Source: an uncultured Ignavibacteriales bacterium (GTDB taxonomy: Bacteria > Zixibacteria > MSB-5A5 > GN15 > FEB-12). Taken from it: a stretch of DNA of 64,000 nucleotides. Both the position numbers and the translations under genes were made by a program. Numbering within the stretch: position 1 is the first letter of the stretch; each line of letters starts with the position of its first letter. Of the stretch, positions 38,788-47,115 are shown one piece after another. The notes under the pieces were generated by a model, which searched no databases, was not told the origin of the DNA, and saw only the letters and a program-made list of their open reading frames with translations. The stretch spans positions 72,402 to 136,401 of the forward strand of contig CAYNEO010000004.1 of assembly GCA_964396245.1 (NCBI GenBank), read 5' to 3'.

Positions 38788-40263
38788 TCAATCGACACGC
38801 TGGGGATTGTTCCACCAAAAGCGGGTCAAACCCCTGTCACTGCCGACCCACAGGTAGTCGCCGTCGAGCAGAAGGGCGTTAACATAGGTTGACGGCAGGC
38901 CGTCGTCGATGCTAAACTCCCTGGAGTACGGCATGCGCTCGCCCCTGAACAGAAGGGTGAAGCCCCGGTCGGAACTGACAGCGGCGATATCGCTGTTGGC
39001 CGCCAGTGCACGCGGGCGGAACAGGGCGCTCTGAAGCGGGAACTCCTGCGCCTCGCCGGTTGCCGTGTTCAGCATGACCACACCGCCGTCGGATGCAAAC
39101 CAGACCTCGTCCTCGTACACCGCGATGCTGTACACCTCATTGAACAACACCATCTTTGGATCCTGGTACCGCTGTAACTTCCCGGTTTTCAGCGACAGTC
39201 GGTAGGCGCCGGAACTTGCGGCTATCCAGACAAAGTCGTTGAGCCGCTTAATTGCGTAGATGGTCTGGTTGATAAACTCGCCCGGGTTGACGTACAGCAC
39301 CGAGTCGGCCATAAAATCAAGGAGTGTCAATCCGCCCGCCGTCCCCACATACAGCGTATCGCCGATCAGCTCGAGACTCGTGACTTCATCGTCCGTAAGA
39401 CCGGACCTCCGATTCATCTGATCGGTGACCCGATTCAGCTGCCGGTCGTACACTAACAAGCCGATGGCGGTGCCGATGTAAATCGCCTGGCTGTCAGCCG
39501 CGAGGCAGGCAATATCTACCGCCGGAAAATCATTCGTGACCCCCGACTCGATATACACAAAACCGCTGTCGTTTCGGTTAAAGCCTGATATCCCCGTCCG
39601 GTAGCTGTTTTGTATGCGGCCCGTGACCCAGAGAATACTGTCGTCTTCCAGGATAACATCGACTTGATCCTGGAGCAGCCCGTACGGTATCAACTTCATC
39701 ACGTCCGTGACCGATGATGCCGTGGCAGCGCCGTACCCCCAGGTGCCAATCCAGACTGAGCCGGTGCCGTCATCGAGAATATCGGTTATCCGAAATGAAC
39801 GCCCGAACGGATCAATGAGAAAGCCGCCCGCCGAATAGTTGTATCCGAACGGAGGAAACATCGTGTTCGGAACGGCCAGGTGCCTGCTGTTAGTTCGAAG
39901 ATCGGGGATCTCGTCCACGTAGGACCACGTGTCGAACAGCGAGTTGTATTCAAAATCACCGTCGTCGGTCCGGGCATACAGCTTGTCGTCAAACGTATTC
40001 ACCCAGACCCGGTAGACGTCGGTACCTTCGAGACCGACCGCGCCGGTCATCGGTGTATCCCATCGGCGTCGAGTGTAATCGTACGTGATGATTCCGCTCG
40101 ATGTAGCGAAGTAGGCCCGGCTCATGGAGGCGGCAATATCGTTAATGTAATTGAAATCGGCGTAGGTGACCGCCTGGCCCGGAAGCCGTTGACCAAACCC
40201 GGCAGCCGGAAGGCCGGCAATCAGGACTGACAGCAGTACAATGGTGCGTATGGTATATTTCAT
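38788..40263 (-). CDS. secreted beta-propeller repeat protein (two-component-regulator-propeller-like)
   Basis: Signal peptide. Multiple repeats of about 45 aa with Y/W-G-T patterns (IWVGT, LYVGTAGGL, LWVGSDRGL). Confidence 0.6.
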   Translation of the reverse strand: MKYTIRTIVLLSVLIAGLPAAGFGQRLPGQAVTYADFNYINDIAASMSRAYFATSSGIITYDYTRRRWDTPMTGAVGLEGTDVYRVWVNTFDDKLYARTDDGDFEYNSLFDTWSYVDEIPDLRTNSRHLAVPNTMFPPFGYNYSAGGFLIDPFGRSFRITDILDDGTGSVWIGTWGYGAATASSVTDVMKLIPYGLLQDQVDVILEDDSILWVTGRIQNSYRTGISGFNRNDSGFVYIESGVTNDFPAVDIACLAADSQAIYIGTAIGLLVYDRQLNRVTDQMNRRSGLTDDEVTSLELIGDTLYVGTAGGLTLLDFMADSVLYVNPGEFINQTIYAIKRLNDFVWIAASSGAYRLSLKTGKLQRYQDPKMVLFNEVYSIAVYEDEVWFASDGGVVMLNTATGEAQEFPLQSALFRPRALAANSDIAAVSSDRGFTLLFRGERMPYSREFSIDDGLPSTYVNALLLDGDYLWVGSDRGLTRFWWNNPQRVD

Positions 40264-41483: not shown

Positions 41484-42203
41484 TCAGGAAGGTTCTGGTG
41501 AATGCCGCGATTTGGGGCGGCCTCCCTTTTCCATCTTCCGCTTGTATTTGTTGGCGAGAAGGTGCGCGATTCGAAGCGGCTCGGGCAGACGGAATCCGCG
41601 AAGACAGCGCACGATGATATCCCGCGAATAGTTCAAGTCACAAAGGTGACCGGGCGAAATGAACAGAGGCTTGACCTTGTCCTTGGTGCGGTACGCGATA
41701 CCTACTTCGCGTCCCTTATGCAATATCGGCTGCAGTCCTCCCTTGAGTTCCGGCACCGGGCGGTGCGTGCCTATCAGGAGGCGACGGGCGCAGCCGACTG
41801 TCGGTTTGTCGAAGTCGAGTCCGACATGGCAGGCGATGCCGCAACGCTGCGGATGCGCCGTGCCGTGGCCGTGCACGATTATCAAATCCGGGTCCGACTC
41901 GAGTTTCGCGAGAGCCTGGACCATGATGGGTCCCTCGCGGAAATAAAACAGCCCCGGGAAGTACGGGAAAGTGACCTTGTCAAAATGGTACACCCGTTCA
42001 ACTTCCTCCAATTGCGGAAACGACAACACGACCGCACTTGCATACAGATTTTCGCCCCCGAAGCCGTACGCGGTGTCGACCGCCGCAATCATTTTCGGTT
42101 CGTCGGTATTGCCGTGTAGTTTGATTTTCGTCGCGACGTCACGCTGTATGTCAATGGCTCTGTGTTTTGTCGAGGGCCATTCATGGACGTAGTGTAACTT
42201 CAA
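41484..42203 (-). CDS. nfi: endonuclease V
   Basis: AAVDTAY, FPGLFYFREGP, HGHGTAHPQRCGIACHVG. TTG start preceded by AAGGTAGG. Confidence 0.88.
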   Translation of the reverse strand: MKLHYVHEWPSTKHRAIDIQRDVATKIKLHGNTDEPKMIAAVDTAYGFGGENLYASAVVLSFPQLEEVERVYHFDKVTFPYFPGLFYFREGPIMVQALAKLESDPDLIIVHGHGTAHPQRCGIACHVGLDFDKPTVGCARRLLIGTHRPVPELKGGLQPILHKGREVGIAYRTKDKVKPLFISPGHLCDLNYSRDIIVRCLRGFRLPEPLRIAHLLANKYKRKMEKGGRPKSRHSPEPS

Positions 42204-42253
42204 TCAGACCTACCTTTCCCAGAGTCGGAAGAGTCTCAGTAATTACTTAATCG

Positions 42254-42271
42254 TGTACAGAATCCTGTACA
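42254..42271. promoter_or_regulatory. perfect inverted repeat TGTACAG-N4-CTGTACA upstream of nfi
   Basis: 7-bp arms, 51-68 nt upstream of the nfi start, within the nfi/orphan-gene divergent region. Confidence 0.4.
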
Positions 42272-42857
42272 GTGGCTGGTTCGTGTCGTGTGCCCTTAAA
42301 AGTAAGTCAACTGCTTGTTACAAACGCGCAGCTCTTTACTTGAATAAGAAAAATTCCCGCTCGAAAGTCAAGTTTTTGATGCCGTGTTAGCGGTTCTTCC
42401 TCGAACAAAAAACTCCCGTCGTCACTCTGTGACAGCGATAGCAGGCGCCGACTGCCCATGGTGTTCTCCAAAAAACGAACATCATCACATAACCCCGTTT
42501 CACCGGACAAAGTTCCGAAGCCGCTTCAAGAATAGATCGCGGAGTAGTCAGACGATGCGCGAGCGCCGATTACGTATAGATTATGTATCGGTGTCTGCAA
42601 TTTCTCGACTGAATAGTCTAGAACCTTTCGTCCGGGCGCAACCGTTGCGTCCTGTCCTCGCGGCACCGACAAAAAAAACGCAGAACCAATGAGCGTGGAG
42701 CGCCAGTAATTTGTTGACAAGCGATCTCACTGCCGTCATCTTCCGGGTGTATTGCGGGGGAGTTCTCCGCCGCTCATCGCGGGGCAACCCTCTTAAGAAT
42801 TCAACAGGCTAAATCGGGGTCTGACTGAAACGGTCGGGCTTCTACAAGGAGGGGATT

Positions 42858-42971
42858 GTGGCTGAGTTCGAACTGGCGTGGGAACGAACGCATATGTCAC
42901 AAATCAGTTACCGCCGGGGTGGACTCCCCGGGAGCTGGAATCAAACAAACGCGGGCGCGAGGGATTCATGA
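42858..42971 (+). CDS. candidate 37-codon upstream ORF
   Basis: AAGGAGG (42846-42852) lies 5 nt before GTG 42858. It encodes MAEFELAWERTHMSQISYRRGGLPGSWNQTNAGARDS. Stop TGA 42969-42971 overlaps ATG 42968 of the large ORF (ATGA). Confidence 0.3.
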   Translation: MAEFELAWERTHMSQISYRRGGLPGSWNQTNAGARDS

Positions 42972-44083
42972 TTGACGGCTATCGCGAGGTTGCGCTGCTG
43001 TTATCCCGTCAGCCGCTTCGACCAAACGGCGATACACCCTGGGTACGGAACATAATCGACGCAGTGTCCTGGCTTAAAGGGGAGCGGGCTGCGATTTGCA
43101 GTTCGATCGGTCTTCAGACGTGGGAGATGATCACCACCGTCACGGTTGATGCCGGCTTGCCGCTTATCCTGTTTATCCCGGCAGAAAATGAAGCTCGCTA
43201 TTGGGCGGAATGCGTGCGCGCCATCCACGAGTTCGACCTGAACACCCGCGTGGTCACCTTCGTGCCGGTTCTTGCCCCGAAAGACCGTCATGCGGCCAGA
43301 GCAATCCTCGAGGCGCGCGACCGCGCTGTCATTTCACGCGCCGACCTGATTCTTCCCGTGTCGGTAAGAGAGCGCGGAAGTCTCCGACGGCTCATCGACG
43401 ATGCCGAATCAAACGGCAAGCAGATCATGGCTCGGTTCGAGACACCTCACACCGGACGTCACGACGCACTCTCATTCGAGATTGATCCCGGAGCTGTCAG
43501 GGAAGAGCTTCCCAAAGAGGCGGCTGAGTATATCATCCACTGGACCCGCTCGTGTAACACCGCCTGGCCCGGTGAACGGCTCATCGATTACTACCGGGCT
43601 ATCATCGATTCACCGACCTATCCGCGCTCGGCCTTTACAACCCTCAAACGAATCCTGGAGTCACGAAAAATCATCGCCTCGTCGCGACACATGCCGCGAA
43701 AAACAGCGACCGTTTCGTTCTCCGGTCTCTCACCAACGGAACTGATACCGTTGATCAAATGGCGGGCCAGGTATCGGGAGATGTCGTTTGAGCCTTACGG
43801 CGTGGGAATCAAACGCGAAGTTGCAGAGCGGCTCGGTATCAAACCGGTGCTGTATTACGAGCCCGACGACGCCGGCAGTGTTCCGTCGGCTGACCGATGG
43901 CGCTCGCAGTCGGTCGGACAGGTCACCGACTGGCGCCGTGAAGAAGAGTATCGCCACCTCGGCAATCTCGACCTGAGTCGGGTTCCGGACGATGCCCTCC
44001 TCGCTGTCTGCTACGCGGCAGGGGAAGCGAAACGATTACAGTCGGAAATTGGCGTTCGGACAATCTCCTTTATCCCCTCATGA
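42878..44083 (+). CDS. orphan protein: DprA/SLOG-like Rossmann N-domain fused to an AbiGi-like C-domain
   Basis: 401-aa ORF. The tracked GTG 42878 has no SD; ATG 42968 has GAGGG 4 nt upstream. Motifs: ICSSIGLQTWEM..DAGLPLILFIP, ARDRAVISRADLILPVSVRERGSL, IIHWTRS, TVSFSGLS, EPYGVGIKREVAERLGIKPVLYYE, REEEYRHLGNLDL. Confidence 0.6.
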   Translation: MGTNAYVTNQLPPGWTPRELESNKRGREGFMIDGYREVALLLSRQPLRPNGDTPWVRNIIDAVSWLKGERAAICSSIGLQTWEMITTVTVDAGLPLILFIPAENEARYWAECVRAIHEFDLNTRVVTFVPVLAPKDRHAARAILEARDRAVISRADLILPVSVRERGSLRRLIDDAESNGKQIMARFETPHTGRHDALSFEIDPGAVREELPKEAAEYIIHWTRSCNTAWPGERLIDYYRAIIDSPTYPRSAFTTLKRILESRKIIASSRHMPRKTATVSFSGLSPTELIPLIKWRARYREMSFEPYGVGIKREVAERLGIKPVLYYEPDDAGSVPSADRWRSQSVGQVTDWRREEEYRHLGNLDLSRVPDDALLAVCYAAGEAKRLQSEIGVRTISFIPS

Positions 44084-44103
44084 CGGGAATTAGCCCCAAC
44101 CGA

Positions 44104-44134
44104 AAAGCCGGCGGAGATCAGCTCCGCCGGCTTT
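44104..44134. terminator. bidirectional intrinsic terminator
   Basis: AAAGCCGGCGGAG-atcag-CTCCGCCGGCTTT between the convergent orphan gene and the S8 protease gene. Confidence 0.75.
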
Positions 44135-44157
44135 CGTAACTCGCAATGTAGAACCGG

Positions 44158-47115
44158 CTACTTCAACAGCAGCATTTTTTTCGATTCGCTGAACTTGTCT
44201 GTCGCCACCCGATAAAAATACACACCGGAGGAAAACGACGAAGCATCCCAGTCGACATCCACCCGACCGGCGCGACCCTGACCGGTGACCTCGTATACCT
44301 TTTGTCCGAGCACGTTGAAGATTGTGAGCGTGTACTCCGATGCTCGTGGCAAGTCAAACGAAATGACGGTCGACGGGTTGAACGGATTCGGGTAGTTCTG
44401 ATACAGTGCAAATGTCTTCGGCAGTACGTTCGCGTCCGGCGGTTCTTCGACAGGTGTCGGCGCCAGCGTGGCCCGCGCGGCTGCGTTGGCGATGTCAGCG
44501 TAGGTATCACCGGCCAAAAGCGCGAAGGTCACGGTCTGTTCCGCTCCCGGGGCGAGCACCATCGGCCCCGCCGCCATCACCTGGAACAGATCATATCTGG
44601 AGCTCTTGTACGTGTCCGCACTGGCAGTTCCATTCGACAATGAATTGTATTTCTCGGAAGTCGTGTAACCATTACCTGATGCACTCAGGTACTTGGCATA
44701 CACGATCAAATCGCTTCGTCCGGTTTGGGCTGTGTAGAACGGACCTTCGAGCAATTTCACGGCGCGATATTCGCTCAAAGAGGTGCCGTTATTATACGCC
44801 ATCCACGCAATCCCGTCGGCTGACTCATACCCGCCGGCGTCCGAAGCATAGTTGTAAATATCCCAATCGAGAAAGATGCCAAAATAGAAATTCGTGATGG
44901 TTACGCCGCTAGTATTCTGCAGAACGTATTGCAGTATGACAAAATCATCGTCGGGCGGGTCGTAAGTGTACGAATTCTGTTTCACCAGTATGTCGAAGGG
45001 GTCGGCGGCGTGGCTGTCGATAAACGCAGAGTATGTCTGCTGGGCCGCAATCGGACCGGGTACCTGCAAAACCAGATTGCCGCCGGGGGCGACGTTGAAA
45101 TCCATGTCCGGATCCCAGAAATAACTGTGCACGGCGCTCGACACCCGGAAAGCGCTGTTGCCCATCATGAGTCCCCCCTCGTACAGATCGTTACCGCCGC
45201 CATTGAAATCGAAACCCAGCCCACCGGCCGGAAACTGCGACCCGGGACCGAGACCCAGCCCGCCCCAGTTGGAGAGCGAGAACGCTAATCTTGACGTAAC
45301 GTGTGACGCTATCGTCTTGACCAATGGCGGAACTACCTGGAAACTCAGATGCAGGGTGTCGATGGCGGTTAACCCTGAGAAAATCACAAAATCGAGCCCA
45401 AGCAAAGATCCCGTGGACACGGTATCGGATACGACCACCCTGAGATTCTCGGGCGATTGAACGGTCGTGTTCCTCAGCAGACTGCCAAAGGTGGCTACGG
45501 CATCCAGCACGGTGAGTGAAGGATCGGAGTTAAGAAGCACACCTGTTACACCGCTGACTGTCGATCCAAGATTCTGAAGCGTGACCTGCCCCGTGACTGT
45601 ATCGCCCGGATGGATAGGGGCATGGTCGAAGGCGTATATCCGGATATTGGGCTTACCGGCGATAGTGGGGAGGGTATCCAATGCACCCATGCAATCAATT
45701 GCCCCCCAGCCGTAATGGTTGTTTGGCGCGAGCCAACTCGGATCCTTTTGGGCGCCGTTCAGGATCGCTGTCTTGATCTGGTCGACCGTGGCATTCGGGT
45801 TTTTCTGCCGCAGGAGCGCCACCAGACCGCTGACATGCGGCGCCGCCATGGAAGTACCGGAAAGAACGTTGTATGTGTCACCCGGCCAACTGGAATAGAT
45901 GCTGGTCCCCGGCGCCACGACATTTGGTTTGAAACTGGGGCCGACACAATCCGACGGGCCGTGTGACGACGAGCGATTGAGCGTAGCCGGAGTTACGGTC
46001 GTGTTCAGGTTCCCCACCGCAAAACTGGCAATCGAGTCGGTCGCCCGGTTCGCCGGATTAAAAACGATTGTGTCCGCGGGCTCATACCTGTTTCCCGCCG
46101 CAAAGATGTTTACGATCCCCAGCGCTTCGACGTTATCGATAACGTCAAAAAAGATATTTTCACACGCCGCCACGCTTTTCGACAATCCCCAGCTATGGTT
46201 GATCACGTCGGGGACATCGCTCACCGTGTTCGGATCACCGTCCGGGTCGGCCGCCCACTCGAAGCCGTCGATAATCGACGCCCCGGCGATATCTATCACC
46301 GCGGCTGAAATCCACTTGGCGCCGGGCGCGACACCGATCGTGTCACTGCTGGTGTGACCCACCAGGATTCCCATCACATGCGTGCCGTGGTTTGTAACAC
46401 ATCCCGCCGTCAAACCGCAATCAGGAATCGTGTGCGGAAACGACTGATGCTTAATCGGGTCGAACCATGCCGCCGCCGAATCACCGTCGAGCCCCTTCCA
46501 ACTACTGTACAACGCCGGGTGTGAACCCTGTATGCCGGTATCAAAAGAGCATATCACTCGTCCTGTTCCCGTATACCCGGCCGCCCATGCTTCCGGCGCG
46601 CGAATATACTTCAGATTTGAAGTTATCGAATCCGGAGCAAGAGCGCCGCCCGCGACCGACTTTTCTTCCACCGGTGCGATGAGGACAATTTCAGGCGGAA
46701 TGATTACGCGCTCGACATCACCACGAGCTGCCAGTGCCCGTAATTCGCCGGCGGCAACCTCGGCCTCGACAAGATTGGTAATCCAGTGCGATTTAATCCG
46801 CGTTGCCCGTCCCCGCGACTCCAACTGCTCGAGCGCGTTAATCAGTCCGCTCTGCGCATGGCTGTTTTCGTCCTTGAGCTGCTTTAGCGCCAATTCATGT
46901 CGGCCCCGGCGGGTATCCGACTGACTGAGCAGGGTCGCTTTGAATTTGGACGCCGACTCGGCCCGTGGAAGCGTGATCCACACGCGGATTTTCTCGTCCT
47001 GACGGCTGGAATTAATCTTGCGGGATAAATCTTCGCCAATCTCACCGGCGAACAGGGACGGTGCCAGGGTAAGCGCCAGTCCGGCGATAAGGGTGGTCAG
47101 ACGGGTTCGGTTCAT
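44158..47115 (-). CDS. S8 subtilisin-like serine protease with T9SS C-terminal sorting domain
   Basis: Signal peptide. Catalytic D (FDTGI), H (HGTHVMG) and S (GTSMAAPHVSG). C-terminus YQNYPNPFNPSTVISF...SGVYFYRVAT...KKMLLLK matches the Por_Secre_tail pattern. Confidence 0.88.
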   Translation of the reverse strand: MNRTRLTTLIAGLALTLAPSLFAGEIGEDLSRKINSSRQDEKIRVWITLPRAESASKFKATLLSQSDTRRGRHELALKQLKDENSHAQSGLINALEQLESRGRATRIKSHWITNLVEAEVAAGELRALAARGDVERVIIPPEIVLIAPVEEKSVAGGALAPDSITSNLKYIRAPEAWAAGYTGTGRVICSFDTGIQGSHPALYSSWKGLDGDSAAAWFDPIKHQSFPHTIPDCGLTAGCVTNHGTHVMGILVGHTSSDTIGVAPGAKWISAAVIDIAGASIIDGFEWAADPDGDPNTVSDVPDVINHSWGLSKSVAACENIFFDVIDNVEALGIVNIFAAGNRYEPADTIVFNPANRATDSIASFAVGNLNTTVTPATLNRSSSHGPSDCVGPSFKPNVVAPGTSIYSSWPGDTYNVLSGTSMAAPHVSGLVALLRQKNPNATVDQIKTAILNGAQKDPSWLAPNNHYGWGAIDCMGALDTLPTIAGKPNIRIYAFDHAPIHPGDTVTGQVTLQNLGSTVSGVTGVLLNSDPSLTVLDAVATFGSLLRNTTVQSPENLRVVVSDTVSTGSLLGLDFVIFSGLTAIDTLHLSFQVVPPLVKTIASHVTSRLAFSLSNWGGLGLGPGSQFPAGGLGFDFNGGGNDLYEGGLMMGNSAFRVSSAVHSYFWDPDMDFNVAPGGNLVLQVPGPIAAQQTYSAFIDSHAADPFDILVKQNSYTYDPPDDDFVILQYVLQNTSGVTITNFYFGIFLDWDIYNYASDAGGYESADGIAWMAYNNGTSLSEYRAVKLLEGPFYTAQTGRSDLIVYAKYLSASGNGYTTSEKYNSLSNGTASADTYKSSRYDLFQVMAAGPMVLAPGAEQTVTFALLAGDTYADIANAAARATLAPTPVEEPPDANVLPKTFALYQNYPNPFNPSTVISFDLPRASEYTLTIFNVLGQKVYEVTGQGRAGRVDVDWDASSFSSGVYFYRVATDKFSESKKMLLLK

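Follow-up and report, generated by a model that had tools for sequence, protein, structure and literature searches.

A 64,000-nucleotide stretch of DNA from an uncultured bacterium labelled Ignavibacteriales (GTDB lineage Bacteria; Zixibacteria; MSB-5A5; GN15; FEB-12; GenBank assembly GCA_964396245.1, contig CAYNEO010000004.1, positions 72,402 to 136,401 of the forward strand; hereafter, the window) contains, on its + strand, a gene that an initial annotation, made from the sequence alone, had described as an orphan and as a candidate single-gene conflict or defence module. Our analysis shows that it is a widely conserved, vertically inherited chromosomal gene, the position of which is usually, not always, fixed, and that its product joins an N-terminal domain of the SLOG superfamily to a C-terminal domain resembling the abortive-infection protein AbiGi, with a predicted ADP-ribosyltransferase (ART) fold. 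We tentatively propose, giving this reading somewhat less than an even chance, that the protein is a cellular ADP-ribosyltransferase dependent on nicotinamide adenine dinucleotide (NAD+), that its SLOG domain gates or targets catalysis, and that the protein is expressed together with Mn, Zn and Fe uptake or oxidative-stress functions.

The open reading frame (ORF) list of the window gives a mechanically called frame at 42878-44083, + strand, with a GTG start and 401 codons; the frame exists as annotated, and all the peptide segments quoted from it were found. The supported start is the ATG at 42968, yielding a product of 371 amino acids (aa), and GTG 42878 is disfavoured, because an identical public protein of 371 aa (P0001) begins at the ATG and because none of 40 aligned homologues matches the first 30 residues of the ORF. 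The homologues start 5-20 residues ahead of the first strand. The segments named previously stand, whereas their residue numbers are shifted by 30 owing to the start at ATG 42968; residues are numbered from this ATG throughout, and the coordinates of the features are collected in Table 1.

Far from being an orphan, the gene represents a phylum-wide family. We identified 184 full-length homologues (37-49% identity, about 360-376 aa), all annotated as 'hypothetical' and none with a Pfam domain, and a phmmer search of 1.84 billion cluster representatives recovered 1,510 clusters at E ≤ 1e-3, of which 1,154 reached E ≤ 1e-10. Among GTDB contigs sampled at one genome per species, 103 genomes encode a relative, and each of the 80 loci listed from these genomes comes from a different assembly, giving a single copy in each genome listed. 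By the taxon names that submitters gave, most loci belong to Zixibacteria, including four multi-megabase records, three of them labelled as chromosomes; a second group carries the labels Fibrobacterota, Chitinivibrionales or Fibrobacter, with a few Desulfobacterales, and many metagenome-assembled genomes (MAGs) labelled 'Ignavibacteriales' show the Zixibacteria synteny. Scanned as a single sequence against Pfam, PADLOC, NCBIfam and PHROGs, the protein gave nothing or matches with E > 0.1; profiles built for the whole protein and for each of its two domains yielded only chance matches against PDB sequences (lysine methyltransferase 8hkr, AriA and NusG), and a further homologue search, started from the C-domain profile, retrieved family members only, with no annotated distant relatives. 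A homologue of 659 aa (P0042) carries no additional domain that could be recognised. The protein defines a new family that joins two known superfamilies and falls outside both PF10899 and PF02481 by the thresholds of these families. The combination of SLOG and AbiGi had been suspected to be undescribed, and in the literature we found no paper on it, nor on an ART in Zixibacteria.

The two-domain architecture was examined in an alignment-based AlphaFold2 model of the whole protein, with a predicted local distance difference test score (pLDDT) of 92.5 and a predicted template modelling score (pTM) of 0.89. By its predicted fold, a three-layer alpha/beta arrangement with a five-stranded sheet, the N-domain belongs to the SLOG superfamily. 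Comparison of this domain with the PDB using Foldseek placed DprA first (4ljr, E = 7e-5, probability 1.0), and the other matches were YpsA (2nx2), ShosA (8zva), molybdenum cofactor (MoCo) carrier proteins (2iz6 and 6y01), the SLOG domain of ThsA (7uxs) and LOG (5wq3), the set spanning E-values from 7e-5 to 1e-2 at a probability of about 1.0; the MoCo-carrier and LOG proteins are among the best matches by TM-score. The DprA/SLOG character assigned to the N-terminal half is in this way borne out by structure, whereas a check with the Pfam DprA profile PF02481 gave no match, and LDcluster4 appeared in 1 of 40 members only, at E = 0.19.

In the 262 full-length members for which conservation was calculated (mean pairwise identity about 41%), the conserved loops of the N-domain (94-100%) sit at the ends of the strands and are a candidate SLOG ligand face, which lends support to the structural assignment. 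We take the S45-E53 segment, by position, to be the first glycine-rich SLOG motif of LOG and DprA. The segment from R117 to G137 corresponds to the second SLOG motif, that is, the region of DprA and LOG running from RN or RK to SG or GG. The loop after strand 1, which in this family holds S13-R14-Q15, is a ligand-contacting position in Rossmannoid TIR, DrHyd and SLOG domains (PMC9503650).

The C-domain, when modelled separately with AlphaFold2, gave a pLDDT of 92.7. Its sequence matches recurrently point to a single family, AbiGi, in agreement with the AbiGi-like C-terminal half first proposed: the PADLOC AbiGi model matched 12 of 40 members in one set and 4 of 34 in another (16 of 74), with a best E-value of 2.6e-5 and over short stretches, and the best score of Pfam AbiGi (PF10899) was 21.2 bits against a gathering threshold of 22.4 (homologue P0238, residues 291-322, positions 48-78 of the 185 in the hidden Markov model, HMM; the PADLOC match of the same protein covers residues 291-316). 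These matches are colinear, running from the HWTR strand through MSFEPYG; in a single-sequence scan the window protein itself had no AbiGi match. Judged by sequence, then, the C-domain is a distant relative of AbiGi and not a member of the AbiGi family. The DUF2971 HMM gave one marginal match per scan (E = 0.15 and 0.39). AbiGi has been listed among ART-like families, and for DUF2971, likened to AbiGi and DarT, the same source describes an ExE motif, together with large helical inserts that separate strand 1 from strand 2 and strand 4 from strand 5 (PMC12522546); the C-domain model shows the same pattern of inserts. In Foldseek comparison of the C-domain with the PDB, the best match was DarTG (7omu; E = 0.057, probability 0.44, TMq = 0.37), and none of the matches is individually significant; 9 of the top 50 in this weak list are ART folds (DarTG first, six KptA/Tpt1, NarE and Arr). 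In BFVD, the C-domain matched uncharacterised phage proteins at probabilities of 0.92-1.0. An ART-like core, at first raised as a speculation, is reinforced by the published classification and by the abundance of ART folds in the weak list, although not by any significant match to an ART.

Eight residues are invariant in all 262 members (D118, H191, E275, Y296, W322, E325, E327 and R329), and nine more are conserved in at least 97% (W192, T193, R194, E203, V249, R266, R268, P276 and Y277). As judged from the alignment, conservation of the motifs is far above chance, and the occurrence of fully invariant polar residues in both domains supports the view that function is retained in both. In the model, the order of the conserved motifs and their placement on strands fit ART motifs I-III, with Y277 an alternative candidate for the tyrosine of motif II. 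Both domains are basic (median isoelectric points 8.7 and 9.1).

Table 1. Coordinates of the gene, its domains and motifs, and the adjoining non-coding features in the window
Feature	Coordinates	Strand	Remarks
Gene proper, SLOG / AbiGi-like ART-fold two-domain protein	42968..44083	+	371 codons + TGA; identical to P0001
30 additional in-frame codons, probably not translated as part of the protein	42878..42967	+	Absent from homologues; annotation starts at 42968
SLOG/DprA-like Rossmannoid domain, residues 1-155, five beta-alpha units	42968..43432	+	Foldseek vs PDB, AlphaFold2
S13-R14-Q15 loop after strand 1	43004..43012	+	S and Q 97%, R 94%; remainder gaps
S45-S46-x-G48-x-x-T51-W52-E53 loop/helix after strand 2	43100..43126	+	S46 98%, G48 96%, W52 95%
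R117-D118 ... P130-V-S-x-R-x-x-G137	43316..43378	+	D118 100%, R117 98%, P130 99%, G137 98%
Inter-domain linker, residues 156-180	43433..43507	+	pLDDT about 77-86, little regular structure
AbiGi/DUF2971-like domain, residues 181-371, predicted ART-superfamily fold	43508..44080	+	Separate AlphaFold2 model, HMM, Foldseek
H191-W-T-R194, end of first strand of C-domain, candidate ART motif I	43538..43549	+	H191 100%, W192 98%, T193 99%, R194 97%
V249-S-F-S252 strand, candidate S-x-S motif II	43712..43723	+	V249 98%; 250 = S/A/C, 252 = S/T (partial)
M272-S-F-E275-P-Y277-G278, AbiGi/DUF2971-like segment	43781..43801	+	E275 100%, P276 99%, Y277 98%
D321-W322-R-x-E325-x-E327-Y-R329, candidate ExE motif III	43928..43954	+	W322, E325, E327, R329 100%; strand begins at E327
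Spacer between nfi (divergent) and the gene	42204..42967	.	764 nt, GC about 0.50 vs about 0.58 in flanks
GC-rich hairpin with A-run and T-run flanks, between convergent gene ends	44101-44136	.	Terminator common to the gene and the S8 protease gene

Vertical inheritance is evident from the gene order and from the divergence of the neighbours. An S8 protease gene lies convergent and directly downstream in 52 of 82 loci, DUF6125 follows in 39 of 82 and an epimerase in 25 of 82, whereas upstream a block of M20 peptidase, propeller, YbbR and TsaD genes is found in about 20 of 82 loci and nfi in 14 of 82. Comparison of the pairwise identities of the protein with those of its neighbours gave Mantel correlations of r = 0.59 for S8, r = 0.49 for DUF6125 and r = 0.40 for the epimerase (for none of the three was the observed value reached in 2,000 permutations), against r = 0.57 in a control between two neighbours. 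The GC content of the gene, about 0.58, equals that of its flanks and is native. In a sample independent of the gene, consisting of eight long contigs anchored on DUF6125, the gene lies beside S8 in 4 of 8 and elsewhere in the genome in 2 of 8, so that 6 of 8 carry it; two related contigs lack it at this site, and the two relocated copies adjoin either TrpRS/TyrRS-ScpAB or polyamine genes. The neighbours in the clade outside Zixibacteria (alpha/beta hydrolase, EEP nuclease/phosphatase, SpoIID, SdpI-like and Na:Ala symporter) have no common theme.

These results do not agree with the description of the gene as an autonomous inserted cassette: it is syntenic, diverges in step with its neighbours and has native GC content, and tblastn against 72,556 plasmids and 50,697 phage genomes gave no homologue (every match had E > 2), nor did a scan of 2.9 million IMG/VR viral contigs. 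The proposal of a conflict or defence module included a check for co-localisation with known defence genes; PADLOC applied to ten neighbours identified none, the exception being the secreted S8 protease, which matched a generic subtilase model. Conservation and synteny within the lineage, which the initial annotation had itself named as speaking against a defence role, are largely what we observe, in the form of phylum-wide synteny and co-divergence.

Several loci (designated by L numbers) carry further genes next to the homologue. In one Zixibacteria contig, a gene for a 95-aa GIY-YIG nuclease domain (L090, 5182-5469) lies between the homologue and the S8 protease; this junction is otherwise fixed, and the inserted gene may represent a small mobile or homing element. 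In a MAG labelled Planctomycetaceae (L045, 6638-7844), a gene for an NTP_transf_2/Polbeta nucleotidyltransferase and a 146-aa gene precede the homologue, a pair that resembles toxin-antitoxin systems of the MNT/HEPN type and occurs once only. In two MAGs labelled Desulfobacteraceae (L050, 7192-7998, and L066, 7105-7992), an EEP family gene abuts or overlaps the start of the homologue in an operon-like arrangement. A 169-aa Macro-domain gene is found at L092 10929-11438 (the same as L029) and at L084 14297-14806, the two copies being 75% identical, 1.8 kb and about 9 kb from the homologue. Its product would fit the part of an ADP-ribose eraser; we considered a linkage of this gene to the family and rejected it, as the gene lies nearby in only 2 of about 85 genomes.

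A further contextual lead is a variable slot directly upstream of the gene, which in about 25 of 86 loci holds a co-oriented divalent-metal importer at gaps of 17-230 nt. A Tro/Znu-type ATP-binding cassette (ABC) importer occupies the slot in 10 loci, one of them also with a DtxR-family repressor, a ZIP transporter in 8 loci, and Nramp with Usp in 6-7 loci; the three types of importer are mutually non-homologous. In two loci (L004 and L083), the upstream regions of which look identical and probably represent one species, the homologue has a divergent Fur-family gene as its neighbour, and in L083 this gene heads a cluster of AhpC, rubrerythrin, ferritin and desulfoferrodoxin genes. An importer or Fur cluster was found upstream at L001, L002, L013, L023, L024, L030, L031, L039-L043, L049, L055, L058, L060, L061, L076, L081, L083 and L085. 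Loci with an empty slot have a divergent gene in its place, either nfi or one for a beta-helix (NosD-like) protein. The importer states are interspersed on a rough neighbour-joining tree of the family. It is from this gene order that we infer co-regulation with metal importers. DUF2971 genes, too, have been reported beside iron permeases (PMC12522546), which echoes the context described here.

Taken together, these findings suggest the following scheme. A cytoplasmic two-domain enzyme would be produced from a single-copy gene inherited vertically in Zixibacteria; its sister clade is found in MAGs of the Fibrobacterota type and in a few others. Its C-domain would be a divergent member of the AbiGi/DUF2971/DarT-like branch of ARTs, with an active-site-like set comprising H191 and R194 on strand 1, S250-x-S252 and/or Y277, and E325-x-E327, and would most likely use NAD+ to ADP-ribosylate a cellular macromolecule. 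A nucleic acid (single-stranded DNA, ssDNA, or RNA) is favoured over protein as the putative substrate because the nearest ART neighbours, DarT and Tpt1, act on nucleic acids. The SLOG domain would most likely bind ssDNA, or a ligand of the adenine-nucleotide or ADP-ribose type, and thereby target or gate the transferase. Expression within a metal-limitation or oxidative-stress response, possibly by co-transcription with the upstream genes, is suggested because the gene is often the last co-oriented gene behind Mn, Zn or Fe importers or lies near a Fur/peroxide-stress cluster. A more specific version, in which the protein is a housekeeping module whose ssDNA-binding SLOG domain delivers the DarT/AbiGi-like transferase to ssDNA (or RNA), or else erases base-linked ADP-ribose by LOG-type N-glycosidase chemistry, so that replication or repair is reversibly marked or stalled under metal or oxidative stress, is speculative, and we consider it rather improbable.

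A number of observations weigh against the proposed ADP-ribosyltransferase. On the side of the fold, the C-domain has no significant match to any solved ART (best E = 0.057, probability 0.44), its likeness to AbiGi extends no further than a motif of about 26-90 residues, which scores under the Pfam gathering threshold, and the ART motifs were assigned by order and strand placement rather than by clustering of the candidate residues in three dimensions. For neither AbiGi nor DUF2971 has an enzymatic activity been demonstrated (PMC13064643, PMC12522546). The SLOG assignment comes from structure, with no sequence-profile match to DprA or LOG in Pfam, NCBIfam or PDB sequences, and no eraser of ADP-ribose (Macro or NADAR) is consistently linked to the gene. 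On the side of the context, comparison of the gene's own promoters with those of the transporter operons revealed no shared operator or Fur box convincingly above shuffles, the slot in the window holds no transporter (nfi is divergent there, followed by the 764-nt spacer), and the importers may track the insertion slot and not the gene.

Some of these same observations would be accommodated if the C-domain were not a functional ART at all and the invariant histidine, glutamate and aspartate residues formed the metal site of another hydrolase or transferase or of a metal-handling protein. The statistically non-significant ART matches, the repeated association with three unrelated metal importers and a Fur/peroxide-stress cluster, and an invariant or near-invariant set rich in carboxylates and histidine (H191, E203, E275, E325 and E327) are consistent with such a site. 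We nevertheless regard this explanation as quite unlikely: AbiGi is the only recurrent family match, motif order and strand placement fit ART motifs I-III, ART folds dominate the interpretable weak Foldseek matches, and no metallo-enzyme fold emerged from any search. If the C-domain does act on NAD+, its product need not be a modified macromolecule, and the protein could be a small-molecule enzyme or sensor in which the ART-like part cleaves or converts NAD+, as in ARTs of the RES/Frg type, and the SLOG domain binds or hydrolyses the product, so that a metabolite or signal is made or destroyed. SLOG domains are documented as binders of ADP-ribose derivatives and as N-glycosidases, and are often combined with domains that process NAD+ or ADP-ribose (PMC9503650). 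D118 (100%) and R117 (98%) lie on the candidate SLOG ligand face, the MoCo-carrier and LOG proteins rank among the best TM-score matches, and the neighbourhood revealed no conserved partner that could serve as an eraser or a substrate. The motif of LOG is PGGxGTxxE, however, and its glutamate has no conserved counterpart in the family; moreover, both domains are basic, as in nucleic-acid binders, and the best neighbours by E-value, DprA and ShosA, bind ssDNA. We therefore consider a small-molecule role unlikely.

The interpretation from which the annotation started, a single-gene defence or abortive-infection cassette with a SLOG sensor and an AbiGi-type effector, draws on the abortive-infection protein AbiGi being the nearest named family of the C-domain, on the part played by SLOG as the sensor in Thoeris ThsA and by a DprA-like domain in ShosTA, and on the occurrence of the C-domain fold in phage proteins in BFVD. 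The gene is also monocistronic in the window, with its own terminator, and evolves faster than its neighbours (mean identity 41%, compared to 48-71%). Against these points stand its position, conserved across the phylum, and a co-divergence with the flanking housekeeping genes that is as tight as theirs with each other, together with its native GC content, its single copy among the 80 loci listed of 103 genomes, the absence of homologues from the plasmids, phages and viral contigs searched, the lack of defence neighbours in PADLOC, and the location of relocated copies among tRNA synthetase, ScpAB or polyamine genes. A defence cassette is accordingly very unlikely.

Comparison with known systems shows where the family resembles each of them and where it departs. 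AbiGi (PF10899; PADLOC PDLC02331) comes first in the lactococcal AbiG gene pair and, alone among named families, matches the C-domain repeatedly; the matches are colinear, centred on MSFEPYGIGI and extend back to the HWTR strand. Whereas AbiGi stands alone as a protein of about 250 aa, is carried on plasmids, forms a pair with AbiGii and has a patchy distribution, the domain described here is fused to SLOG, has no AbiGii or other conserved partner, and is chromosomal, syntenic and vertically inherited. With DUF2971 (PF11185) and DarT (PF14487) it would share a predicted ART core, the ExE motif III and the helical inserts between strands 1-2 and 4-5, but, unlike DarT, it has no DarG-like macrodomain antitoxin as a partner and is not a toxin-antitoxin locus. 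DprA and ShosA, both basic and ssDNA-binding, come closest to the N-domain in structure (E = 7e-5 to 9e-4, probability 1.0); compared to DprA, the protein lacks a SAM, DML1 or winged-helix accessory domain and the GID/H residues, the latter as had been noted from the sequence, and a separate bona fide DprA is present in at least one Zixibacteria genome that carries a homologue (L084). As in ThsA (SIR2-SLOG) of Thoeris and other fusions of sensor and effector in NAD+/ADP-ribose networks, the SLOG domain would be joined to a catalytic domain that uses NAD+; the effector here is ART-like and not SIR2, the order of the domains is reversed, and no ThsB/TIR generator or defence island lies nearby.

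In the window, Pfam identifies both flanking genes as annotated, namely endonuclease V (nfi; 41484-42203, - strand, E = 3e-63) and an S8 subtilase with a Por_Secre_tail domain (44158-47115, - strand), the type IX secretion-associated protease of the earlier description; the farther neighbours are TsaD, YbbR, a PorZ-like propeller, an M20 peptidase, DUF6125, an NAD-epimerase and a Na:Ala symporter. The PorZ-like beta-propeller gene (38788-40263, - strand) and the S8 protease gene are both related to type IX secretion, and more very large Por_Secre_tail proteins are present at several related loci. The bidirectional terminator reported to close the gene corresponds to a strong hairpin at 44101-44136 (free energy -31.1 kcal/mol, z = -5.3), with none of 200 shuffles folding equally well. 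The non-coding DNA upstream is long, as had been stated, but measures 764 nt from ATG 42968 rather than about 670 nt. No gene remnant, Rfam family, tRNA, repeat or likeness to other loci was detected in this spacer, and its small ORFs have no Pfam match; at another nfi-adjacent locus (L084, 4250-4556) the corresponding spacer is about 300 nt, and that in the window may be the scar of a cassette lost from the variable slot. A 37-codon ORF (42858-42971, + strand) starts with GTG 42858, 5 nt past a strong Shine-Dalgarno-like AAGGAGG (42846-42852), and its TGA (42969-42971) overlaps the ATG of the gene as ATGA, an arrangement typical of translational coupling; its peptide, VAEFELAWERTHMSQISYRRGGLPGSWNQTNAGARDS, has no Pfam match.

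The picture that remains is that of a phylum-wide fusion of SLOG and ART-like domains, probably catalytic and reproducibly linked to metal-uptake genes. It represents a large, well-conserved family outside the curated libraries, in which an AbiGi-type domain joined to SLOG acts as a core cellular gene, and it cautions against taking homology to a defence protein as evidence that the role is one of defence. The genetics of AbiGi date back to 1996, with the biochemistry of the family still undemonstrated; the present protein offers a handle on the ART-like chemistry of AbiGi and DUF2971, for which its invariant residues constitute a clean set for mutagenesis, and the genomic context provides a lead that ties this branch to Mn, Zn and Fe uptake and oxidative stress. 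Should housekeeping ADP-ribosylation of nucleic acids prove true, the 'abortive-infection' AbiGi fold would have an ancient cellular role across a whole phylum. For Zixibacteria, the analysis supplies a candidate function for a 'hypothetical protein' found throughout the phylum.

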